Shown: piece after piece, positions 3,445-12,971 of the stretch
Numbering within the stretch: the first letter of the stretch is position 1
How the letters are laid out: every line of letters starts with the position of its first letter
From: a virus
Taxonomy: Duplodnaviria; Heunggongvirae; Uroviricota; Caudoviricetes
DNA: 12,971 nt
Virus record (IMG/VR): IMGVR_UViG_2547132278_000011
Span: 1 to 12,971 of that record
Reading direction: 5' to 3' (one strand)
Program-made: the position numbers and the translations under genes
The notes under the pieces: generated by a model
Told to the model about the DNA's origin: nothing
The model's database searches: none
The model's input: only the letters and a program-made list of their open reading frames with translations

Positions 3445-5139
3445 TTAATTATTAAGCAATCTGCTCACACGTAGTTTGTTAAGACTTGATCTAGAGGCCA
3501 GTTTCGTTAATGCACCTATTGCTTTATTCGTGATTTTTTGCTGTTCTTCTGTTAGTTCTTGCATACTTTTGAATCTGAGCAACCCCTTTCTCACTAAATC
3601 CAAAGCATCCTGATTGCGGGATAATATCCACTTTAAATAATCATCTTCAGAGAAACTGTTAAGATATGCTATGTCACTATGATTAAATTTGCCTTCAATT
3701 ATTTTGTATAAAACATTCTCTAAATTAGTCTCTTCAGGCTTCTTATCCATCAATTTTTTTTGAATTAGCAGACCTAACTTTTCGTTACCAAATATCTCTA
3801 CATACAAATTCCGAAAAGCAGTATAAGCATCATCTTGGCTAACAAAGGCATCTGCATATGCCTCTATATAACTATCACAATCAATCTCCAATCTATTTAA
3901 GATATCAATCAAGCCTATGAAGTGAGCAACAGGTATGTGTGAAAGATTGTCGTTAATTACACATTTTATCTTAGAAATAAACTCAGATTCATTGTCCTTG
4001 AATGAGTCACTAAAAATATCCCAAACATTGTTAACCTCACATAAAGCCTTGTGTTCTTTATATTGTTTATTTTTTTCTTCTATTATACCTCGAATATTGC
4101 TTTCAGTAGAAAGATAACCATTCTTGAGATAAAAATCTATGTCATCATCGAAAGCAATTTCCGCTCGTTCATAAATAATATCAAGACTATTAATAAATGA
4201 ATATACAGAATCATCCTTTTTATCATCTAACATGTAATCAAATACATGTATGTTTTTAATTGATTCTTTAAACAAGGCATAATCAACACCTGGAACACCA
4301 GAATAGTAAACCACTGAAAACAGAACCAATCTATTGATAAAACTTTCTCTAACCTTATCCTCTGCCAAGCTTAGCTCATTCCTAAGATTAACCAGAGATG
4401 TTTTTATTTTATTTAATATACGGATATTTTTAATGCCTAAGTCATTTGCTAAGACTTTTAACAAAAGAAAATCAGAATCAGTTTCATAAAAAACTTTACG
4501 TAAGTTCTTCTCAGGCGTAGGATCGTATTTTATTTCGACATCAATTACTTTTTCTCTGTACTCTAAAAACTGTTTTTTTGCAGTTTCATCATGTAAATTA
4601 TCTTCATTTAAAATTAGAACAACTTTGCAACCTTTTCTTCTTGCTAATTCATCAATTACCCCCATAATTTCTTTAACTTCTAGCGAATTACCTTTTCTTT
4701 CAACATCATCAATACAAACCAAATAATTATTAACAAATTTATACTCAAGAGATGACAGCAGGTTATCTGTTTTGAACCCAAAAAAATCGTTCTTTCCGAA
4801 ATGTATTAAAAATTTTGACAAGGAGTTGTATTTCAACCATCCCCAAAACCCATTTCTATAACGAATCATAGTTCGATCCGTTTCAGATAAAATTAGTTCT
4901 TTATATTTCTTTTCATTAATTGGTGTGGCACAATGATAAAGAGTTTTTTTAATATCACCAATAGAGTTAACCCCAAACAAAGAAACATACGAATATGCAT
5001 TAAAATCTAATCCTTCAGAATGCTTAGTATAAAAACTATTCCAATAATGAGTTTTACCAACGCCCCAATCTCCTTTTATGACGGCAACCCGATGATCTGA
5101 AACTAGAAAATTTTTTAGAAATGATTCTATCGATTCCAT
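3445..5139 (-). CDS. KAP-like P-loop NTPase, soluble, with a ~370-aa C-terminal helical domain of unknown function; candidate horizontally acquired defence/abortive-infection gene
   Basis: 564 aa from the ATG at 5139 (the ORF-track start at 5148 is TTG). Walker A VIKGDWGVGKTHYW (KAP-type G-x-WG-x-GKT), Walker B-like LVCIDDVERK, then VVLILNED. No hydrophobic transmembrane helices between Walker A and B. Sampled 60-nt lines give 23-25% G+C (for example 4381-4440 = 14/60) against about 53% in the neighbouring parA region (5701-5760 = 32/60). Confidence 0.65.
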   Translation of the reverse strand: MESIESFLKNFLVSDHRVAVIKGDWGVGKTHYWNSFYTKHSEGLDFNAYSYVSLFGVNSIGDIKKTLYHCATPINEKKYKELILSETDRTMIRYRNGFWGWLKYNSLSKFLIHFGKNDFFGFKTDNLLSSLEYKFVNNYLVCIDDVERKGNSLEVKEIMGVIDELARRKGCKVVLILNEDNLHDETAKKQFLEYREKVIDVEIKYDPTPEKNLRKVFYETDSDFLLLKVLANDLGIKNIRILNKIKTSLVNLRNELSLAEDKVRESFINRLVLFSVVYYSGVPGVDYALFKESIKNIHVFDYMLDDKKDDSVYSFINSLDIIYERAEIAFDDDIDFYLKNGYLSTESNIRGIIEEKNKQYKEHKALCEVNNVWDIFSDSFKDNESEFISKIKCVINDNLSHIPVAHFIGLIDILNRLEIDCDSYIEAYADAFVSQDDAYTAFRNLYVEIFGNEKLGLLIQKKLMDKKPEETNLENVLYKIIEGKFNHSDIAYLNSFSEDDYLKWILSRNQDALDLVRKGLLRFKSMQELTEEQQKITNKAIGALTKLASRSSLNKLRVSRLLNN

Positions 5140-5160
5140 TAGTATCAATCCTTTAATTCA

Positions 5161-5550: not shown

Positions 5551-6218
5551 TATTCTTCTTCCTCCAGACTCAACAGATAATCTACAAATTCTTCAAACTC
5601 GGCTTCCGCCTTTTTGTCGCGCTCGCTACCGGTCATTTCAAAGATAGAACGACCAGACTCTTCCGCATCATCATAGACGTTGCGGTTATATAGATTGACT
5701 GGCGCAGACTCGATGCCAAACGTCTCAACAATCTCTTTAGCCGCCAGAATGCGAGACACTTGTGATGGCAAAGCCGGGCACTGGTTCATGACCGCGCGGA
5801 CCTTCACTTTATCGTTTACATTGCGAACATTGTCGATAATAGGATCGATGTCACGTAAAGATTTCAAATCACGACGCTTAGGACGCAGCGGGATAATGAT
5901 AACGTCAGCCATCAGCATCGCTTGTCGCTGAATTTCGGAGTCGAAGCCACCAGCATCTACCACTACAAACTCAGCTCTACCCTGAAGCGATTTTAGGTGC
6001 TTAATGATGTCATCCTGAACGTATGCAAAAGGAATCAGCTCAAGGTCTTCGTTCTGTCGACGGTCTTCACACCAGCTTGTTGTCGTGCGCTGAATATCTA
6101 TATCAGTGATATAAACCTTCTTCTTCTTTTTGACTTTCAGGCAAACGGCAATTTGCTGGGCAACGGTGGATTTGCCAGGCCCGCCCTTTGTGCCGCCAAC
6201 CACAAAGATCTTGGTCAT
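5550..6218 (-). CDS. parA: ParA/MinD-family partition ATPase (small type Ib-like ParA)
   Basis: 222 aa. Deviant Walker A VVGGTKGGPGKSTVA near the N-terminus, FVVVDAGG Walker B-like motif, acidic C-terminus. AAGGGA about 9 nt upstream of the ATG at 6216-6218. Confidence 0.8.
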   Translation of the reverse strand: MTKIFVVGGTKGGPGKSTVAQQIAVCLKVKKKKKVYITDIDIQRTTTSWCEDRRQNEDLELIPFAYVQDDIIKHLKSLQGRAEFVVVDAGGFDSEIQRQAMLMADVIIIPLRPKRRDLKSLRDIDPIIDNVRNVNDKVKVRAVMNQCPALPSQVSRILAAKEIVETFGIESAPVNLYNRNVYDDAEESGRSIFEMTGSERDKKAEAEFEEFVDYLLSLEEEE

Positions 6219-6366
6219 TGGAGAGTTCCCTTTGCGTATATAATTATCGTCTGAAACAACTTGTTTTCTTATATGTGATATAGCCTAAATGCCTACGGCT
6301 GTGGTGTAAAGGTTAAATGGTAGGTGCTGCCTTAGAATTTTTAGGCGAGAATCAATGGCTGTTAAC

Positions 6367-6389
6367 AAAAAAGGCGACCAAAGTCGCCT
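6367..6389 (-). terminator. Rho-independent terminator for the minus-strand two-gene operon
   Basis: GC-rich stem ggcgac (6373-6378) / gtcgcc (6383-6388) with a 4-nt loop; on the minus strand it is followed by UUUUUU (6372-6367), directly after the stop of the 250-aa gene at 6395-6397. An A-run/T-run on both sides means it could act in both directions. Confidence 0.6.
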
Positions 6390-6394
6390 GATTT

Positions 6395-7147
6395 TTAATC
6401 TTTTAGGTATAAACCTACTGGAGTTCTTGTTTTGCGGGAGATGATAAGTACGATAAATTTCTGAACGTTAACTTGCACTTTGTTTGGGAGCCAAGAGCTT
6501 AACTCTGCATCAAGCAACAATCCTCTGTTCCACGGCAAAAATCCGGTTTCTTTCCCCATCCCGTACTCACCTAACACATCCTCGAACGTTTCTGTTTTGG
6601 CATTGTATATACGCACATCGCCGGTTCGCATGAGAGGCCCTGCCCAGATCTTAGCACCAGGAATGGTTTGTGTATCGTCGCAGACTAAATGCTCATACCA
6701 ATGAAGAAGAAAGAGATAGGTACGGTGACACAATCCTCGCTGACGACGCTCTCTGACAGTTTCGACACCGGCTACCTGGTAACATTCGATCTCATTACCG
6801 TCTTCAACAAAACTATATTCACGCAGAGCTATCCTACCAGCGATCGTATTTTTGTTTTCGTCCAGAAGCCCGGACTGGAGCACCTCTTTGATAATCTCTT
6901 CTTCAGGGGCATCTTCATCCGCTCGATCTAAGATGAATTCGCTCAGGTCGCCTTGGTCGCGCGCACCTACAAGTTCCATAGAGACATACAGGCAAATGTC
7001 ATCTTCTGGTTCAATGATTTCAATTTCTGAGATTTTATAGAGGGAGGCTTCATTGATAAGAAAGCCAAAACGAACAACACGAGTCTCCCCTTTATGAGGA
7101 AACTCGCTTAGATCTTTTGAATATGCGCTATCTAGTGTAGGAGCCAT
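6395..7147 (-). CDS. Hypothetical protein (250 aa), second gene of an insulated two-gene operon
   Basis: ATG at 7145-7147 lies 16 nt inside the 3' end of the upstream 127-aa gene (overlap ATGGCTCCTACACTAG), with an in-frame TGA 12 nt before it, so this is a separate, translationally coupled ORF. Acidic N-terminal third (DRADEDAPEEE). No recognisable catalytic motifs. Confidence 0.6.
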   Translation of the reverse strand: MAPTLDSAYSKDLSEFPHKGETRVVRFGFLINEASLYKISEIEIIEPEDDICLYVSMELVGARDQGDLSEFILDRADEDAPEEEIIKEVLQSGLLDENKNTIAGRIALREYSFVEDGNEIECYQVAGVETVRERRQRGLCHRTYLFLLHWYEHLVCDDTQTIPGAKIWAGPLMRTGDVRIYNAKTETFEDVLGEYGMGKETGFLPWNRGLLLDAELSSWLPNKVQVNVQKFIVLIISRKTRTPVGLYLKD

Positions 7148-7515
7148 TTTGTAGCAGAATCATCAGCCTTAACCGTGCTGACAATGCTACCATGATTGCG
7201 TAAGAAGCGGCGAATAGAATGTTCAATAACCTCCGAAAAAGCCTCGATAAAACGAGACAGCTCAGGGTACTGTTTAGCTGGCTTGACTACAAAACGAACA
7301 CGACCATTCAGGTAAATTGCTTCAGCTAATGGCTTCACGCTTGCACCAGCGCGCTCAACATCGTCTTTGAAGGTAACGATGAAGCGTGAGTCTTCCGGTT
7401 CAATAGCGTCATTATTGAGCTTACGTACTTCAAGCTTGTGCTGATTCAGCACATGAGTCTCGATAATACTCGTGCAATCGCGAATAGTTTGTATAGAACG
7501 TTTCTCGTTCAGCAT
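7132..7515 (-). CDS. Hypothetical protein (127 aa), first gene of the two-gene operon
   Basis: ATG at 7513-7515 with a strong Shine-Dalgarno AAGGTGG about 5 nt upstream. Preceded by a ~225-nt non-coding leader containing three hairpins. No recognisable motifs. Confidence 0.6.
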   Translation of the reverse strand: MLNEKRSIQTIRDCTSIIETHVLNQHKLEVRKLNNDAIEPEDSRFIVTFKDDVERAGASVKPLAEAIYLNGRVRFVVKPAKQYPELSRFIEAFSEVIEHSIRRFLRNHGSIVSTVKADDSATKWLLH

Positions 7516-7622
7516 GTGTCCACCTTAGCCGTTAACACAAGTGTCATTGCGGCACCCCTCTCGGGGTTGAAGGCTACGAGGATGCGTAGCCTGTATGTGC
7601 CCACTTACGTGGATGCCTAATA

Positions 7623-7651
7623 AATCTACATCAAATTACTAAATGATTCAA
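7623..7651 (-). promoter_or_regulatory. Candidate sigma70 promoter for the 127-aa/250-aa operon
   Basis: On the minus strand: TTGAAT (plus 7646-7651), 17-nt spacer, TAGATT (plus 7623-7628). Sits in AT-rich sequence about 110 nt upstream of the 7515 start. Pattern match only. Confidence 0.25.
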
Positions 7652-7739
7652 CATGAGCTTGAGTGAACAGGCGTGTATATGAGTGAAGATGCCATCTTTA
7701 GGATAAAAGGTAAACTGAGACCACTCATCAATCATCGAC

Positions 7740-7967
7740 TCAGTTCAGGTGCCCCCACTCACACAGCCTTTCACCTATCGTATTGTGGATAAGCAACTGT
7801 CGCTCCGTTTCCTCAGTCATAAAATCCTCTCTACTCACATAAATAGGATTTGCAGCATCGCAGAATAGCACGCCTGGAGCCTGCGTCTTAATCACGCACC
7901 CATTTATCAAACAGCTCGCGATGAACACCAGAGGCATCTTTTTGCCGCACTTCATTAACCGTTTCAT
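7740..7967 (-). CDS. Putative o-spanin-like outer-membrane lipoprotein (Rz1-like), overlapping the 3' end of the upstream gene in a different frame
   Basis: From the internal ATG at 7965-7967: MKRLMKCGKKMPLVFIASC... gives a basic n-region, a short hydrophobic core and a lipobox-like IASC. The mature part carries extra Cys residues. Overlaps 7888-7967 of the i-spanin-like gene out of frame. Start uncertain (ATGs also at 7976, 7955, 7937). Confidence 0.4.
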   Translation of the reverse strand: MKRLMKCGKKMPLVFIASCLINGCVIKTQAPGVLFCDAANPIYVSREDFMTEETERQLLIHNTIGERLCEWGHLN

Positions 7968-8139
7968 TTTTGACATCCACTGTGCTTTGAAGTCGTTTTC
8001 TGTCTTCCTGTTTTGCCTTCTCTTCCATTGCTCGTCGCGCCGCATTCCCGCCCATCGTGTAAGCGCCGACAAGAACGAAAAGAACGGCAGCCAGCGTAAT
8101 CAAAGCAACTTTTAGCTTTGTCATCAGGCTGCCTAGCAT
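7888..8139 (-). CDS. Putative i-spanin-like protein (Rz-like): N-terminal transmembrane anchor plus charged helical periplasmic region
   Basis: 83 aa. N-terminal hydrophobic helix LKVALITLAAVLFVLVGAY followed by a highly charged segment (RRAMEEKAKQEDRKRLQ...). ATG 1 nt after the stop of the upstream gene (TAATATG). A nested out-of-frame lipoprotein ORF is typical of overlapped spanin pairs. Confidence 0.45.
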   Translation of the reverse strand: MLGSLMTKLKVALITLAAVLFVLVGAYTMGGNAARRAMEEKAKQEDRKRLQSTVDVKNETVNEVRQKDASGVHRELFDKWVRD

Positions 8140-8140
8140 A

Positions 8141-8833
8141 TTAGACCATCCCTTTCTGGTGTTTTCTTACCTGCGACCAGGCAATGAATCCTGCCACAAC
8201 AATAGTGGCAATACCGAAGATGATGCGTACTGTATCCCCGCTAGAGATATGACCTTGTGCTTTATCCATAGCAGCGGAAACCTGCGGCATAACATCGGCC
8301 AGCTGCGCCAGACCAATACCTGCTGTAACAGTTGCGCCTGCGGTTTCTTTAGTTACAGGAACAGCCTTCACGGTTTTCACCGGCTTAACAACGCCAGCTC
8401 GACGCAGACCTTCCTCAATAACTTCTGCCGCATACCAGGTGTTCAGCGTTTTTAGCGGGCCTCGGCCATTCTCGTGGCGAATGATTGCCTCAACCAAAGG
8501 TCGAAGGATGTCGTAATCATGCAGATCGATGATCATGTCTGCGGTTACACCAACGGCTTTAGACACCTCATTAATGTAGGCGTCAGTATTGTTTTCATTC
8601 GGCGGTGCCCAACGTTCAATAACTTCACGAATGGTATCGATACTTGAGCCGTCTTTTGCGCGACGTTTGTCGTGGTAGGTAATTAGAGTCACCGCCAGCG
8701 CACGAATCCCCCAAACAGGGTCTTTAAACGTGCAAAAGCGCGGTTCGTCTGGATTCGCAACCAGACCTTGCCACGGTGATCCTTTATCAAGATTACCGGG
8801 GTTATTATTACGAATGCCTCTCGGAGTCTTCAT
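8141..8833 (-). CDS. Putative lysis-module protein (possible peptidoglycan hydrolase-like) with a soluble ~200-aa domain and a single C-terminal transmembrane helix; function unconfirmed
   Basis: 230 aa from the ATG at 8831-8833 (AGGAGA 7 nt upstream; the ORF-track start at 8860 is GTG). Begins MKTPRGIRNNNPGNL. C-terminal hydrophobic helix IIFGIATIVVAGFIAWSQV. Sits immediately upstream of the spanin-like pair. I could not assign the catalytic family from sequence alone. Confidence 0.5.
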   Translation of the reverse strand: MKTPRGIRNNNPGNLDKGSPWQGLVANPDEPRFCTFKDPVWGIRALAVTLITYHDKRRAKDGSSIDTIREVIERWAPPNENNTDAYINEVSKAVGVTADMIIDLHDYDILRPLVEAIIRHENGRGPLKTLNTWYAAEVIEEGLRRAGVVKPVKTVKAVPVTKETAGATVTAGIGLAQLADVMPQVSAAMDKAQGHISSGDTVRIIFGIATIVVAGFIAWSQVRKHQKGMV

Positions 8834-8846
8834 CCTTGATCTCCTG

Positions 8847-9170
8847 TTATTGCAGTCCACTTTTTACGCCATACGCGGCTAACCCCAAAAGCAGTGCGGT
8901 AATAATGAACGACGTTATTTTAGAAACAATGCCGCCAAAGAACCCACTTGAGATGGAATCTAACCGGTTAAGGAGTTTGTCCAGATTGGAGTGTTGAATA
9001 CTATGTTGCGCCGGGGTCATATCACCAAAGTAGGTTTTCAGCTGATCATTGACCTCCTGGCCAATTTCTTCACGTAGCTCTTTACCTAATTTGCCAACAA
9101 CCTCCCGAGCAACGATCGCGGCAATACGCTCAACTTGCTCTGTTGTAACGCCCGCCATCTCGTTCGACAT
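8847..9170 (-). CDS. Small tail-anchored membrane protein (possible holin/antiholin-like), function unknown
   Basis: 107 aa from the ATG at 9168-9170 (GGAGG 6 nt upstream; the ORF-track start at 9182 lacks an SD). Soluble charged N-terminal ~85 aa, then a single C-terminal TM helix ITSFIITALLLGLAAYGV. Its stop is 13 nt before the next gene's start. Confidence 0.45.
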   Translation of the reverse strand: MSNEMAGVTTEQVERIAAIVAREVVGKLGKELREEIGQEVNDQLKTYFGDMTPAQHSIQHSNLDKLLNRLDSISSGFFGGIVSKITSFIITALLLGLAAYGVKSGLQ

Positions 9171-9251
9171 GTTTTCCTCCATGAAAAGTCAAATCGGGAT
9201 GGCGGATTTATATCACATTTCACCCTTTTGTTGTAGGTGTGTACTTACCTA

Positions 9252-9485
9252 TCATTCAGCATTGCAACCGATTGATGAGAAAGCACCTACTCCAACCCAT
9301 CGCCAGTTATAGATGCTACCCGCTTTGTATAAGGTATAGTCGTTCACTTTTTTAACAGCATATATGGGTATGACTGTCTCCTGTCCACCAATGATAGCTT
9401 CACCATAACATATAGGTGTCGGCAATTTCTGGCAGCCAGTAAGAGAGAGAACAACAGCTATTGTTAGAAATAATCTTTTCATCAT
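9252..9485 (-). CDS. Small secreted lipoprotein (77-aa precursor); candidate Cor/Llp-like superinfection-exclusion factor
   Basis: MMKRLFLTIAVVLSLTGC has a canonical lipoprotein signal peptide with lipobox LTGC. Small size, and position directly downstream of the tail-fibre/adhesin genes. Starts 7 nt after the stop of the upstream gene. Confidence 0.55.
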   Translation of the reverse strand: MMKRLFLTIAVVLSLTGCQKLPTPICYGEAIIGGQETVIPIYAVKKVNDYTLYKAGSIYNWRWVGVGAFSSIGCNAE

Positions 9486-9492
9486 TTACTCA

Positions 9493-10101
9493 TCAGTTAT
9501 ACAGATTTCTATTTATTACCGGTACTCTGCCATTTACGCTAAAACTATGGCCGCCATTAAGTTGGTTTACGAATATCGAGCTAACAGTATTTCCATATGC
9601 CGCATATCCATAAACCATTGTCATGGCTCCGCCCGGTACTGGAACAGCGAACACATTCGCATATGTTGGGATTATCGCTGGAGGGTAATCAAAAACATGC
9701 CCTCCAGAGCTGTTCCACTCCGTATTATTAAGAAAGGTAAATGAAAGTGGGATATTTGCCGTATTATAGATTTCCTCCCCTTGTGCATTGAAAAAACTCA
9801 TGCCCCAAGTTTCTTTTTTGGCTATACCTTTCGAAAATACGTATATCGTGGCACTAGAGTCGCTACCCTGACCTCCGAAACTGTAAATCACCTGGTTGTT
9901 ACGCACTATTCTGTTGGCTATTAATGAAACAGCTTTCGAATAGGCAACAAAAATAATCGGTGAACGATCTGGAGATATTTTGGTGTTAAACTCTGTCCCG
10001 CCGGACAAAGAAACAACCTGCTTTCTCTGAAAAACGATAGGAGACAAAGAAGGAGACATCCAGACCTTCCCGTCAGATCGATATATCTTGCTTCCGTACA
10101 T
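9493..10101 (-). CDS. Gly/Ser/Thr/Asn/Tyr-rich beta-type protein (202 aa), likely tail-fibre-associated (distal adhesin or accessory); function unknown
   Basis: Composition typical of fibre or receptor-binding domains (GGHSFSVNG, VYGYAAYGN). Its ATG overlaps the stop of the upstream 84-aa ORF by one base (TAATG at 10099-10103). Confidence 0.5.
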   Translation of the reverse strand: MYGSKIYRSDGKVWMSPSLSPIVFQRKQVVSLSGGTEFNTKISPDRSPIIFVAYSKAVSLIANRIVRNNQVIYSFGGQGSDSSATIYVFSKGIAKKETWGMSFFNAQGEEIYNTANIPLSFTFLNNTEWNSSGGHVFDYPPAIIPTYANVFAVPVPGGAMTMVYGYAAYGNTVSSIFVNQLNGGHSFSVNGRVPVINRNLYN

Positions 10102-10415: not shown

Positions 10416-12971
10416 TTATTCTTTAGGTGAATTTAACTTCGTTTCAAGCTCCTCAACCCTTTTGGTCAATTGCTGAATATGATGAATGAGTGGTACAACC
10501 AAACGCTCATACATCACTCCTTCAGCGACCATACCATTTGAGGAAATATCTTCTGGAGAATCATTATTTGTTGGTTCACGCCAATGGACATATTGCGGGG
10601 CAATCTCACCAACCTCTTCAGCAATAAGGCCGTAATACCCCCAATCCTTTCGGTCACCTCGACAAATTGAACGATACCAAACAGGTCTTAATGACAAAAG
10701 TTCATCAGCATATCGATCTTGTAATGTTTCAATATCCTTTTTATAGCGCCTTGAAGACGTTGAACGCCAAACTGTATTGATACCTGGGTTTGGATCAATG
10801 TACATATTGGCACCGCTAGTAGTTGTGCCAATATCCCATATAGCAAACCCTCCACTACCGCCTGATTTGACAACCAGTGTTTCAGCAACAATATCCAGGT
10901 TGCCACTATAGCCTGTCAGTGATGATCTGCTTGCATAGGAACTTAGAAGGTTTGCTACCTCTGTTTTCGTGTAAGCATTAAGGTTAGCCGCAGTCAAAGT
11001 TATATCGGCAGAGCCATCAAACGCCACACCAGCAATTTTCCTTGCTGTCTGCAATTTTGTGGCGGTTGCGGCATTACCAGTAGTGTTCTGATTACCAGTT
11101 GTATTCACACCAGGGATTGAATCCTTAGCGGTATATACCTGCGCCCACGCTGACCATGCCGCACCTGTGTAATCTCTTCGGGAGCGAATGAAAACCGGCG
11201 CATGTGCACCGCTCGTACCACTCCAGCCAATAAGCAACTCGCCCTCACCAGCAGCACTCGCACCTTTCATGTGCAATACGTTGCCATACGTGGTCGGGTA
11301 GCTATTGTTGTACGCCTCATACATTTGAATGCCAGCAGTGCCTTGAGTAGAGCCGCTTAACGCCGTAACTCGGCCACGAGATACCAATGTATTAATGTTG
11401 ATATCGCCTGAGCCATCAAACTTAACACCATTGATGTTTCTCGCTGTTTGCAACTTCGTAGCTGTTGAAGCATTACCGTTCAAACTACCATTTACGCCAC
11501 CAGTAACATTTAGTCCATTACCAATGGACACAGCACCGCTGGTATTGTTAATTGTAATCGGTCGCAAACCGTTCCATGAACCTAATGTGTCTCCTGATGC
11601 TGTTAGCAGGAAATATGTGTTCGCCCCATCATTACGGATAAAGAACCCAAAGTTACCGTAAGCAATGCGGAAACCATTTGCATATTTTGAAACGATCTCA
11701 CCAGAAGACGTTAACCCTCCAGATAATGTGCCACCTGAAAGCGGTAATGCTCCTACATCAGAAGCTGTTGGTTTGTTTCTGGTGTTATAAGAACGACGCC
11801 AGCCTGGCGCATAATCACTTCCATTGTACACATAAATAAATTCCGCATTATTAACACCACCATGACCCGATGTTGTTGTCGTTGTAACACGAATAGTGTA
11901 ATGGCTTGTTGCCTTATTACTAAACACCTCAATCACGGAACCAGATAGATCGATCCTACCGCAACCAGTGTCGTCTATATAATTATTGTTGGCGTAAGCC
12001 CATGAGCACCGTGCAATCCAATATTTGTTTGAAAATGCACCCTGATTATTTAGCCACGTTATAAACTGAGCAGTCGTAAATGCTGTTCCGTTACCACTAT
12101 TTAACCATCCGGCGGCAGCGGTTGGTGCGTTTATATCAGCCGGCTGAGGCATAAATCCAGTCGTGTAAACCTGCTCCCAACCACTTTCAAAACCATAGCC
12201 ATCTCTTGAGGAACGGTAGAACAGACCACCATTTTTATAGTGAGCTTTAATTTGAAGCGTACGGCAACTACCTACACCGGTATAAAAGTTGGCAAGAATA
12301 TAACTAGCGCCTGCTCTAGTTACATTGTAAGCACCAGATTCAGCATTCCACGGCACGCCACCATCAGCATCCGCATATGACCCTGTTGCCCTTCTTGCGA
12401 AAGCGGCAACATGCGCAGCGGTTAAAGTGATATCAGTAGAACCATCAAATGGAACACCGGATATTTTTCTTGCAGTCTGAAGTTTTGTAGCAGTTGCAGC
12501 ATTACCAGTGGTGTTCTGATTACCCGTAGTGTTTACACCTGGAAGGTTAATATTTGCAGAACCGTCGAAAACAACTCCACCGATAGATCTTGCCGTCTGC
12601 AATTTCGTGGCTGTACTTGCATTACCATTCAATGAACCAGTTAATCCACCTGTAACAGACAACGGACCTGAAACTGTTCCTCCGGTTGTTGGCAGTGCTC
12701 CAATATCTAACGGCGTCGGTTTCTGATGTGTGCTATACATCGTATAAACAACACCATCGGTAACGCTGGAAGGCTTACTCGCTGAATATGTTGGCGAGGT
12801 ATAAATAGAAACTGTCGCATTTGCAGTACAATCCCAATGGATATTTACACGAGTCGCATAATTGCCAATCTCAACGTAAATATCATATGTATCGCCGGAT
12901 GTGTTGATCCAGGCGAAATTCGTTAATCCGACAGCTGTACGCTTCCACAAAGCACCTGTAATCCCTTTGGG
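10416..12971 (-). CDS. Phage tail fibre protein, 5'-partial (N-terminus beyond the window), with repeated tail-fibre motifs and a C-terminal peptidase S74-type intramolecular chaperone domain
   Basis: The frame is open from the window edge; the ORF-track start at 12950 is a TTG artefact. Four copies of the N-A/T-S/A-TATKLQTAR motif, each followed by ...FDGS...; two copies of a larger module PGVNTTGNQNTTGNAATATKLQTARKI-GV-FDGS-DITLTAA. C-terminal SSRRYKKDIETL ... GLIAEEVGEIAP ... VEELETKL matches the conserved Ser/Lys auto-cleavage region of S74 chaperone domains as I recall it. Confidence 0.9.
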   Translation of the reverse strand, partial: PKGITGALWKRTAVGLTNFAWINTSGDTYDIYVEIGNYATRVNIHWDCTANATVSIYTSPTYSASKPSSVTDGVVYTMYSTHQKPTPLDIGALPTTGGTVSGPLSVTGGLTGSLNGNASTATKLQTARSIGGVVFDGSANINLPGVNTTGNQNTTGNAATATKLQTARKISGVPFDGSTDITLTAAHVAAFARRATGSYADADGGVPWNAESGAYNVTRAGASYILANFYTGVGSCRTLQIKAHYKNGGLFYRSSRDGYGFESGWEQVYTTGFMPQPADINAPTAAAGWLNSGNGTAFTTAQFITWLNNQGAFSNKYWIARCSWAYANNNYIDDTGCGRIDLSGSVIEVFSNKATSHYTIRVTTTTTSGHGGVNNAEFIYVYNGSDYAPGWRRSYNTRNKPTASDVGALPLSGGTLSGGLTSSGEIVSKYANGFRIAYGNFGFFIRNDGANTYFLLTASGDTLGSWNGLRPITINNTSGAVSIGNGLNVTGGVNGSLNGNASTATKLQTARNINGVKFDGSGDININTLVSRGRVTALSGSTQGTAGIQMYEAYNNSYPTTYGNVLHMKGASAAGEGELLIGWSGTSGAHAPVFIRSRRDYTGAAWSAWAQVYTAKDSIPGVNTTGNQNTTGNAATATKLQTARKIAGVAFDGSADITLTAANLNAYTKTEVANLLSSYASRSSLTGYSGNLDIVAETLVVKSGGSGGFAIWDIGTTTSGANMYIDPNPGINTVWRSTSSRRYKKDIETLQDRYADELLSLRPVWYRSICRGDRKDWGYYGLIAEEVGEIAPQYVHWREPTNNDSPEDISSNGMVAEGVMYERLVVPLIHHIQQLTKRVEELETKLNSPKE

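Follow-up and report, generated by a model that had tools for sequence, protein, structure and literature searches.

A putative lysis cassette of an SSU5-like phage-plasmid combines an Enc34/M4Lys-type endolysin with a small protein carrying its membrane helix at the C terminus

When two adjacent phage genes both encode proteins with a membrane helix at the C terminus, do they serve host lysis, where canonical holins and signal-anchor-release (SAR) endolysins carry their membrane segments at or near the N terminus, or do they encode membrane-associated virion proteins? This question was raised by the initial annotation of IMG/VR record IMGVR_UViG_2547132278_000011 (Caudoviricetes; hereafter the window, the whole stretch of 12,971 nucleotides analyzed) for a 230-amino-acid (aa) and a 107-aa protein encoded upstream of a spanin-like pair. 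Plasmids of ~110 kb from E. coli and Shigella match the 1.8-kb region concerned at 100% identity, phage Cyrano matches it at 95%, and Salmonella phage SSU5 at 83%; the region occurs in 395 PLSDB plasmids. On sequence grounds, the window therefore belongs to an SSU5-like phage-plasmid. Taking the explanation as a whole, we consider it fairly probable that region 7740-9170 (minus strand) is a lysis cassette in the order holin slot, endolysin, i-spanin, and o-spanin, in which the endolysin is of the Enc34/M4Lys type and bears a membrane module, the 107-aa protein would act as a timer, and the spanins would complete lysis. The four genes are as follows, where TMD denotes a transmembrane domain and ORF an open reading frame.

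8847..9170, minus strand: 107-aa tail-anchored "holin-slot" protein (ORF; phrog_5093; homologue of SSU5_026 and Cyrano CYRAN_22)
8141..8833, minus strand: 230-aa Enc34/M4Lys-type endolysin, assigned by homology, with a PHA02564 catalytic domain and a C-terminal membrane domain
7888..8139, minus strand: i-spanin of 83 aa with an N-terminal TMD (phrog_1026, Rz-like spanin, 5.7e-25)
7740..7976, minus strand: o-spanin lipoprotein (phrog_1275, Rz-like spanin, 2.8e-25)

The tight coupling upstream of a spanin-like pair that had been described is borne out. Only 13 nucleotides (nt) separate the 107-aa stop codon from the ATG of the 230-aa gene, whose own stop is joined to the i-spanin start in the sequence TAATATG, and the o-spanin ORF overlaps the 3' end of the i-spanin gene (shared positions 7888-7976). 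The i-spanin has its transmembrane (TM) helix at residues 9-29, and the o-spanin carries the lipobox FIAS|C, its start being uncertain among ATG codons at 7976, 7967, 7955, and 7937. An i-spanin with an N-terminal TMD and an overlapping o-spanin with a lipobox cysteine are the components of a two-component spanin. The SSU5 and Cyrano annotations call the four genes putative holin, endolysin, Rz, and Rz1, and most plasmid records label all four "hypothetical protein". SSU5_026/027 and CYRAN_22/23 are orthologues of the 107-aa and 230-aa genes in the same order, their names "putative holin" and "endolysin" being positional or automatic. Both genes are under strong purifying selection, with a ratio of nonsynonymous to synonymous substitution rates (dN/dS) of ~0.03 versus SSU5 and equal constraint on N- and C-terminal parts; for the 107-aa gene, which is clearly a genuine gene, dN is 0.027 and dS 0.97.

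The identity of the 230-aa protein is the best-defined part of the cassette. Neither Pfam nor NCBIfam gave a significant match, and the protein therefore could not be placed at first reading. The search for a catalytic family, blank in those two databases, succeeded elsewhere: the protein matches phrog_873, "endolysin", in PHROG (3.4e-88), and phmmer against the PDB aligns its residues 3-151 with 7Q47 (7q47_A; E value, 2.6e-54), the catalytic domain of ORF39, Hafnia phage Enc34's endolysin, as solved by Cernooka et al. (2022). An AlphaFold2 (AF2) model built from 20 homologues has a per-residue confidence (pLDDT) of >90 over residues 1-150, and in Foldseek this predicted structure superposes on 7q47_B with a TM score of 0.90, a root mean square deviation of 1.4 Å, and 59% identity. 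Within an alignment of 20 diverse homologues (A5), W75 (ERWAPP), Y86 (DAY), and E121 (RHENG) are invariant and align with Enc34 W79, Y95, and E131, and Trp79, Tyr95, and Glu131 are catalytically important in Enc34 (Cernooka et al. 2022). The similarity continues past the enzyme: by tblastn, lysis protein A of FSL SP-088, a chi-like member of the Casjensviridae, matches 99% of the protein's length at 55.5% identity, the membrane domain among it, and is itself 97-99% identical to M4Lys of phage BSPM4. The C-terminal domain aligns over its full length with endolysins of Chivirus, Dunedinvirus, Zhonglingvirus, and Sharonstreetvirus. Closer relatives are SSU5_027 (~94% identity, estimated from the sequences) and Cyrano CYRAN_23 (95%), and the whole family comprises at least 2008 clusters. 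By homology and structural modeling, then, the 230-aa protein is a PHA02564 or Enc34/M4Lys-type endolysin.

The catalytic domain of Enc34 is all-helical and related to the lysozyme alpha-lobe, with distant links to GH73 and GH23 (Cernooka et al. 2022), and M4Lys without its TMD is an N-acetylglucosaminidase, possibly also an endopeptidase (Bai et al. 2020). As judged from sequence and model, residues 1-150 of the 230-aa protein are an all-helical, lysozyme-alpha-lobe-like glycosidase, probably an N-acetylglucosaminidase, with Glu121 as the predicted catalytic acid.

The same catalytic domain is also found, N-terminally or internally, in T7-like internal virion proteins, in tape-measure and head proteins, in structural proteins of Mu-like Pseudomonas phages, and in the E1004 core protein Gp29 (PDB 9VVP), and CDD names it "virion protein". 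The 230-aa protein could on these grounds be a virion-associated peptidoglycan hydrolase of the ejection or internal-core type, used at infection. However, those proteins are large (several hundred to >1000 aa), are encoded in structural modules, and match only residues ~4-146, while the 230-aa gene lies between the holin slot and the spanins, in a cassette with no other endolysin candidate. Because of this location, and because the homology of its product to enzymes that lyse from within (M4Lys and Enc34 ORF39) runs from end to end and takes in the membrane domain, we regard a virion role as highly improbable, and the suggestion of membrane-associated virion proteins was not upheld.

How is this endolysin built? 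Its ORF begins with the ATG at 8833, preceded at 7-8 nt by AGGAG, and the protein starts with MKTPRGIRNNNPGNL; a 239-aa version from a GTG start is less likely. The N terminus, MKTPRGIRNNNPGNLDKGSPWQG, is hydrophilic, and hydropathy analysis finds no hydrophobic segment there. Four parts can be told apart, and their positions are as follows.

8384..8833, minus strand: enzymatically active domain, residues 1-150 (AF2 pLDDT >90; Foldseek match to 7q47)
8258..8344, minus strand: proximal, weakly hydrophobic Gly/Ala/Thr-rich helix, ~residues 164-192, conserved in A5
8171..8233, minus strand: distal transmembrane helix, ~residues 201-221 (top 19-residue Kyte-Doolittle window, 2.07)
8144-8170, minus strand: basic tail RKHQKGMV, after the distal helix

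The C-terminal module (residues 151-230) runs from a VPVTKET linker through the weak Gly/Ala/Thr-rich helix and an ISSG turn to the strongly hydrophobic helix and the basic tail. Its top 19-residue window covers residues 204-222, leaving 8 residues to the end, and the only segment with a Kyte-Doolittle value of at least 1.4 spans residues 196-223; the proximal helix has a mean hydrophobicity of 0.42-0.46 on the Eisenberg scale. Ten positions of the domain are invariant over the 20 sequences, among them P159, T161, A167, G174, Q177, and A188. Distal helix and basic tail are present in all 20 homologues (net tail charge, 0 to +4). The initial annotation had assigned a C-terminal hydrophobic helix to both proteins, and this proved right and beyond what chance would give: the top windows score 2.07 and 2.02, and the position is kept in 20 of 20 homologues of the endolysin, in one of which the proximal helix scores higher, and in 26 of 26 of the 107-aa protein.

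Endolysins of this architecture are known. Such a protein was first pointed out in the Siskin genome note (2019): a putative endolysin whose TMDs are C-terminal, together with a holin whose TMD is N-terminal. Expression of M4Lys alone is enough to lyse E. coli, also in the presence of azide; removal of the TMD abolishes lysis and leaves a soluble muralytic enzyme, and the TMD alone is bacteriostatic (Bai et al. 2020). Full-length Enc34 ORF39 is toxic, and its form lacking the C terminus is soluble and active on cells with a permeabilized outer membrane. The protein described here resembles these in architecture and length (230 aa versus 237-259 aa), in its 59% identity to the Enc34 catalytic domain and ~55% full-length identity to the Chivirus orthologue, and in the catalytic Trp/Tyr/Glu set, the VPVTKET linker, the weak proximal helix, the ISSG turn, the distal helix, the basic tail, and the accompanying o-spanin. 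It differs in its carrier, a ~110-kb phage-plasmid where theirs are ~60-kb flagellotropic siphoviruses. In the Enc34 paper, SSU5 goes unmentioned and the architecture is described as confined to Chivirus and its relatives. Compared with textbook lysis genes, the arrangement is indeed unusual, as first noted, but publications from 2019-2022 already describe it, and its occurrence in SSU5-like phage-plasmids is a modest extension.

A harder question is how such an enzyme sits in the membrane. The authors of M4Lys, using Phobius and Phyre2, predicted an N-out orientation, and for the Siskin and Enc34 endolysins two TMDs with N-in/C-in topology were predicted, the second TMD being the equivalent of our proximal helix. 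The description of the 230-aa protein as tail-anchored stands for the C-terminal helix, but the N-in topology that the term implies is an assumption on which the predictions for characterized homologues disagree. SAR endolysins such as P1 Lyz and phage 21 R21, which work with pinholins, are similarly membrane associated, can lyse without a holin when overexpressed, and have a weak Gly/Ala/Ser/Thr-rich helix resembling the proximal helix seen here. In contrast, their SAR domain is N-terminal and Sec-dependent, while the N terminus here is hydrophilic, the membrane domain is C-terminal, and the homologue M4Lys is azide-insensitive; the 230-aa protein lacks the weakly hydrophobic N-terminal signal anchor by which a SAR endolysin is recognized, and this identity was rejected. 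Tat export was likewise rejected on inspection, with neither a twin-arginine motif nor an h-region at the N terminus.

Could the endolysin instead be a mirror image of the SAR type, held inactive on its C-terminal anchor and freed upon membrane depolarization? The basic tail past the hydrophobic helix favors a C-in orientation, the N-out prediction for M4Lys points the same way, and LysAP of Acidovorax phage AP1, a GH24 enzyme with a C-terminal TMD, has been interpreted as a "C-terminal SAR" endolysin. LysAP also needs its C-terminal TMD for localization and lysis and lyses alone on expression. It is unlike the present protein in that its GH24 domain is unrelated, its partner HolAP has its TMD near the N terminus (residues 32-54), and Sec involvement has been reported. 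The 230-aa protein itself has no N-terminal signal or hydrophobic segment, lysis by M4Lys is azide-insensitive, and this reading would require the translocation of a ~190-residue N-terminal domain by a C-terminal signal, an export route for which no mechanism is known (Cernooka et al. 2022). We consider such a mirror-image anchor unlikely.

We turn to the partner of the endolysin. The 107-aa ORF starts with the ATG at 9170, preceded at 6 nt by GGAGG. Its product is 99% identical to Cyrano CYRAN_22 and 95% identical to the SSU5 "putative holin", and its single PHROG match is phrog_5093, "unknown function" (1.9e-68). Neither Pfam nor NCBIfam gave a match for it, nor did PADLOC, and Pfam searches with 26 members of its family returned scattered chance matches and no holin family. 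Two segments of the protein stand out.

8865..8942, minus strand: C-terminal TM helix, ~residues 77-102, FFGGIVSKITSFIITALLLGLAAYGV, followed by KSGLQ (top 19-residue window, 2.02)
8991..9026, minus strand: juxtamembrane motif G49-x6-H56-x3-H60, GDMTPAQHSIQH, predicted cytoplasmic, invariant in alignment A2

The top window, the sole hydrophobic one, covers residues 81-99, after which 8 residues remain. A word-indexed search found only SSU5-type relatives (59-100% identity), and a family-profile hidden Markov model search extended the family to 55 representative clusters at E < 1e-3. Among GenBank phages, homologues occur in SSU5-like phages only, and tblastn with two distant family members against the same phages again returned SSU5-like phages only. 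In the 26-sequence alignment A2 (28% mean identity, reaching down to ~25% identity), G49, H56, and H60 are the only invariant columns, and the hydrophobic helix ends 4-14 residues before the C terminus in all 26 sequences; a pattern search from the whole family alignment failed, with no conserved stretch to build on. Full-length members have ~94-143 aa and consist of an Ala-rich helix, a helical, charged segment whose length varies, the motif FGDMxPxxHxxQHxR, a helix, and the hydrophobic helix. In alignment A1, the TM helix is the most conserved stretch of the protein.

Two side observations concern the ends of this protein. An in-frame ATG 12 nt upstream of the start (9171-9182, minus strand) would add MEEN (MEENMSNE...); many homologues, though not every one, have this ATG, which overlaps the Shine-Dalgarno sequence. 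It could be a dual start of the holin/antiholin kind or a by-product of an ATGGAGG ribosome-binding site, and we did not accept the former given its absence from some homologues and the overlap. In addition, an I-S-S-G turn directly precedes the C-terminal TM helix in both proteins (DSISSGFFGG... and GHISSGDTVRI...; 8230-8245 and 8940-8955, minus strand). S-S-G is invariant in A1 for the 107-aa protein, and in A5 S198 of the endolysin is invariant and G199 nearly so. Comparison of the 107-aa family with the endolysin C-terminal domain by hhalign gives a probability of 48% and an E value of 1.9e-4 over the TM helix and ISSG, where TM composition bias is possible; the turn is absent from those family members linked to M15 endolysins. 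The shared turn may reflect co-adaptation or just composition bias.

Does the 107-aa protein belong to lysis at all? Its homologue immediately adjoins, and often overlaps, an endolysin gene in 17 of 19 contexts, and these endolysins are of two unrelated types. The order of 107-aa homologue, TMD-bearing endolysin, i-spanin, and o-spanin is kept down to 56-64% identity in phage-plasmid-sized contigs of Enterobacterales (Buttiauxella, Kluyvera, Photorhabdus, Xenorhabdus, and Morganella), with moron pairs inserted between cassette genes in three loci. Outside the SSU5-like elements, the next gene in eight of nine readable contexts (L008, L009, L010, L011, L022, L024, L025, and L027) encodes a signal-less Peptidase_M15_3 endolysin, usually overlapping. 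Where the contig continues beyond it, the next gene product (72-96 aa) resembles class II holins, having two hydrophobic helices and, at the C terminus, a charged tail. It is followed by one of 123-212 aa that has its TM helix at the N terminus and weak Rz-like matches; in two loci, a lipoprotein ORF overlaps the gene. One of these contigs (L009, 73.5 kb) has the gene order tail, lysis, PhoH, Hfq, DnaB, and primase, locally like the window, and its family member also occurs on contigs of up to ~106 kb. A metagenome scan for more contexts of the family returned a single locus.

Among the two-helix proteins, those of 72-84 aa encoded directly after the M15 endolysins at 4755-4973 in L008, 5829-6083 in L009, and 1116-1358 in L025 share a conserved AVGPxN and have no significant PHROG or Pfam match; they may represent an undescribed holin family. 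As for the interrupted loci, the Photorhabdus asymbiotica locus L016 contains two copies of a gene pair (~103-106 aa and ~218 aa; 3898-4865 and 5673-6652), one between the 107-aa homologue and the endolysin and the other between the endolysin and the spanins, with no Pfam match for either gene. In L018 and L020, 0.9-1.4 kb is inserted before the spanins. These inserts indicate that the lysis cassette tolerates interruption.

An accessory membrane protein, such as a moron product, a superinfection-exclusion protein, or a tail-fiber-associated factor, might merely happen to lie between tail-fiber and lysis genes. Some contexts fit this idea: in the window, the gene follows moron-type genes with Cor-like, "membrane associated", and "outer membrane" matches, in L007 the family gene follows a tail-fiber chaperone gene with no endolysin nearby, and in L016 1.1 kb of other genes precedes the endolysin. 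Yet the upstream neighbors vary while the link to the downstream endolysin is constant, with adjacency in 17 of the 19 contexts, and the protein has no match in PADLOC. The association of the family with endolysins of two unrelated types makes a lysis role much likelier than a moron or tail-fiber role, and we hold the accessory explanation to be improbable. By association in gene order, the 107-aa protein is a lysis protein.

Is it then the holin? If so, it would represent a new class of true holins, tail-anchored and with a single TMD, forming holes or pinholes at a set time that release or activate a tethered endolysin whose C-terminal helix serves as a tether only. The protein is small, with one TMD, and its gene has the classical position, adjoining the endolysin gene and translationally coupled upstream of it in both PHA02564-type and M15-type cassettes. 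Apart from the spanins, the SSU5-type cassette encodes no other small membrane protein, the TM helix and the juxtamembrane region are the most conserved parts, and the Enc34 authors have speculated that TMD endolysins are perhaps released by pinholin-like partners. Against this, the protein matches no described holin family and lacks the charged, hydrophilic cytoplasmic C-terminal tail typical of holins, with 5-8 residues (…KSGLQ) after the helix here and 4-14 across the family. The M15-type cassettes also encode the more holin-like two-TMD protein with a charged tail, M4Lys lyses without a partner, and the chi-like protein in the same slot is nonlytic. A true holin is therefore possible but doubtful. 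The proposal of a noncanonical holin/endolysin arrangement holds for the endolysin, which does bear a C-terminal membrane domain within a lysis cassette, but the holin label of the 107-aa protein comes from its position only.

The known systems closest to this arrangement help to frame its role. Upstream of the chi-like endolysins stands an unrelated holin candidate of "class IV" with an N-terminal TMD and N-out/C-in topology, whereas the partner here is tail-anchored. The 107-aa protein has no BLASTP match to the candidates of Siskin, Enc34 (ORF38), and BSPM4 (ORF_37), and comparison with them using A2 in hhalign gives a probability of 0.2%; with no homology and the TMD at the opposite end, identity with the class IV protein was rejected. 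BSPM4 ORF_37 is nonlytic alone and slightly delays lysis by M4Lys (Bai et al. 2020).

P2-type lysis cassettes consist of the holin Y, the endolysin K, the timing protein LysA, and the spanins LysB/LysC. The M15-type relatives of the present cassette share with them a small membrane protein, an endolysin, a second small membrane protein, and overlapping spanins, and the spanins in the window overlap as well. There is no sequence relation to the P2-type genes, however, and the SSU5 type has no second membrane protein, its endolysin itself bearing the two-helix module. In both cassette types, then, the 107-aa family is found together with a two-helix membrane module, which is free in the M15 type and fused to the enzyme in the SSU5 type, where the module ends in a basic tail and a second holin-like protein is missing.

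The homologies, the domain layout, the conserved residues, the gene order, and the selection are shown, and from them we infer a topology, a trigger, and a role for the 107-aa protein. The endolysin would insert posttranslationally into the inner membrane via its C-terminal module. By homology to M4Lys, this module would take the enzyme to the inner membrane without Sec and would be needed for lysis, making a separate holin dispensable; residues 151-230 may in effect supply the enzyme with its own two-helix element of the class II holin kind. The module would give the catalytic domain access to the wall once a critical level is reached or the membrane depolarizes. The 107-aa protein would be tail-anchored in the inner membrane, with its ~75-residue helical N-terminal domain in the cytoplasm and ~5 residues outside, and would act as an antiholin or co-holin that times or restrains triggering of the two-helix module, and probably not as the sole hole-former. 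The spanin pair would then disrupt the outer membrane.

Several points weigh against this mechanism. The proximal helix of the endolysin is weakly hydrophobic, with a Kyte-Doolittle value of ~1.0 (estimated by hand), and the topology signals conflict, the basic tail indicating C-in, M4Lys N-out, and Siskin and Enc34 N-in/C-in. Comparison of the endolysin C-terminal domain with the free two-TMD proteins gives hhalign probabilities of ≤0.4% and lends no support to a fused holin. The 107-aa gene occupies the classical holin position, and databases name it a putative holin; the AF2 model of its product, with three helices, is of low confidence (pLDDT 46), and in L007 two small membrane proteins are encoded downstream and no endolysin within 4 kb. 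The timer role itself is drawn by analogy from a nonhomologous chi-like protein and from the extra holin-like gene of related cassettes, and literature searches turned up no relevant experimental or analytical work on the SSU5 and Cyrano lysis genes or on tail-anchored holins.

With the proposed timer in mind, the ancestry of the cassette can be considered. The o-spanin is 39-49% identical to chi-like o-spanins, and the i-spanin, which is kept downstream of the endolysin in SSU5-like elements, has no detectable relation to chi-like i-spanins; Kongari et al. (2018) likewise assigned one of the two SSU5 spanin components to the "Chi" family and left the other a singleton. Since endolysin and o-spanin are common to chi-like phages and the 107-aa protein and i-spanin are not, the SSU5 cassette looks chimeric. 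More tentatively, the 107-aa family might constitute a new tail-anchored (N-in, C-out), single-pass lysis class marked by G-x6-H-x3-H that times free or enzyme-fused two-helix modules, and the SSU5 cassette might be a chimera that kept an ancestral timer and i-spanin and took a self-exporting endolysin and o-spanin from chi-like phages.

The surroundings of the cassette complete the picture of the window. On the minus strand, the order from 5' to 3' is tail fiber, three moron-type genes, 107-aa gene, 230-aa gene, i-spanin, and o-spanin. A promoter and terminator scan of 7500-9600 found none, and the cassette is therefore probably part of a longer late transcript. Two of the upstream genes have the following positions, and the other two moron-type genes match "membrane associated" and "outer membrane" PHROGs.

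10416-12950, minus strand: tail fiber gene (ORF)
9252-9485, minus strand: Cor-like lipoprotein, moron-type (PHROG match)

The tail fiber has 844 aa, with a T4 gp34-like trimerization domain, a segment like the gp37 C terminus, and a C-terminal Peptidase_S74 intramolecular chaperone, and contains several repeats of the motif GNASTATKLQTAR...GV.FDGS. Between parA and the spanins, at 6395-7515 (minus strand), ORFs of 250 and 127 aa overlap each other; neither Pfam nor PADLOC gave a match for them. Cyrano has a KacT toxin/antitoxin pair in this slot and SSU5 two different hypothetical genes, and the position looks like a variable accessory slot. Farther along, between replication genes and parA, a gene at 3445-5148 (minus strand) encodes a 567-aa KAP-family P-loop NTPase (Pfam PF07693, 1.6e-5) that matches the PADLOC candidate defense system PDC-S49 (4.8e-22). 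The gene sits in an island where GC content falls sharply, to 0.28-0.33 against ~0.46 in the surroundings, and is probably a horizontally acquired antiphage defense gene on the phage-plasmid.

With the endolysin type already described, the uncharacterized tail-anchored 107-aa family is the only element of the cassette with some novelty. Ordinary M15 endolysins are among its partners too, and the family, if confirmed, would add a new type to the known holins and antiholins. The Enc34/M4Lys-type enzyme emerges as the standard endolysin of SSU5-like phage-plasmids, which are common in clinical Enterobacterales; self-lysing enzymes like M4Lys are already used as lysis modules and are considered as antibacterials. 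The presence of the same endolysin beside two unrelated small membrane partners of mirrored topology, one in the SSU5 type and one in the chi type, provides a natural swap experiment on the role of the partner.

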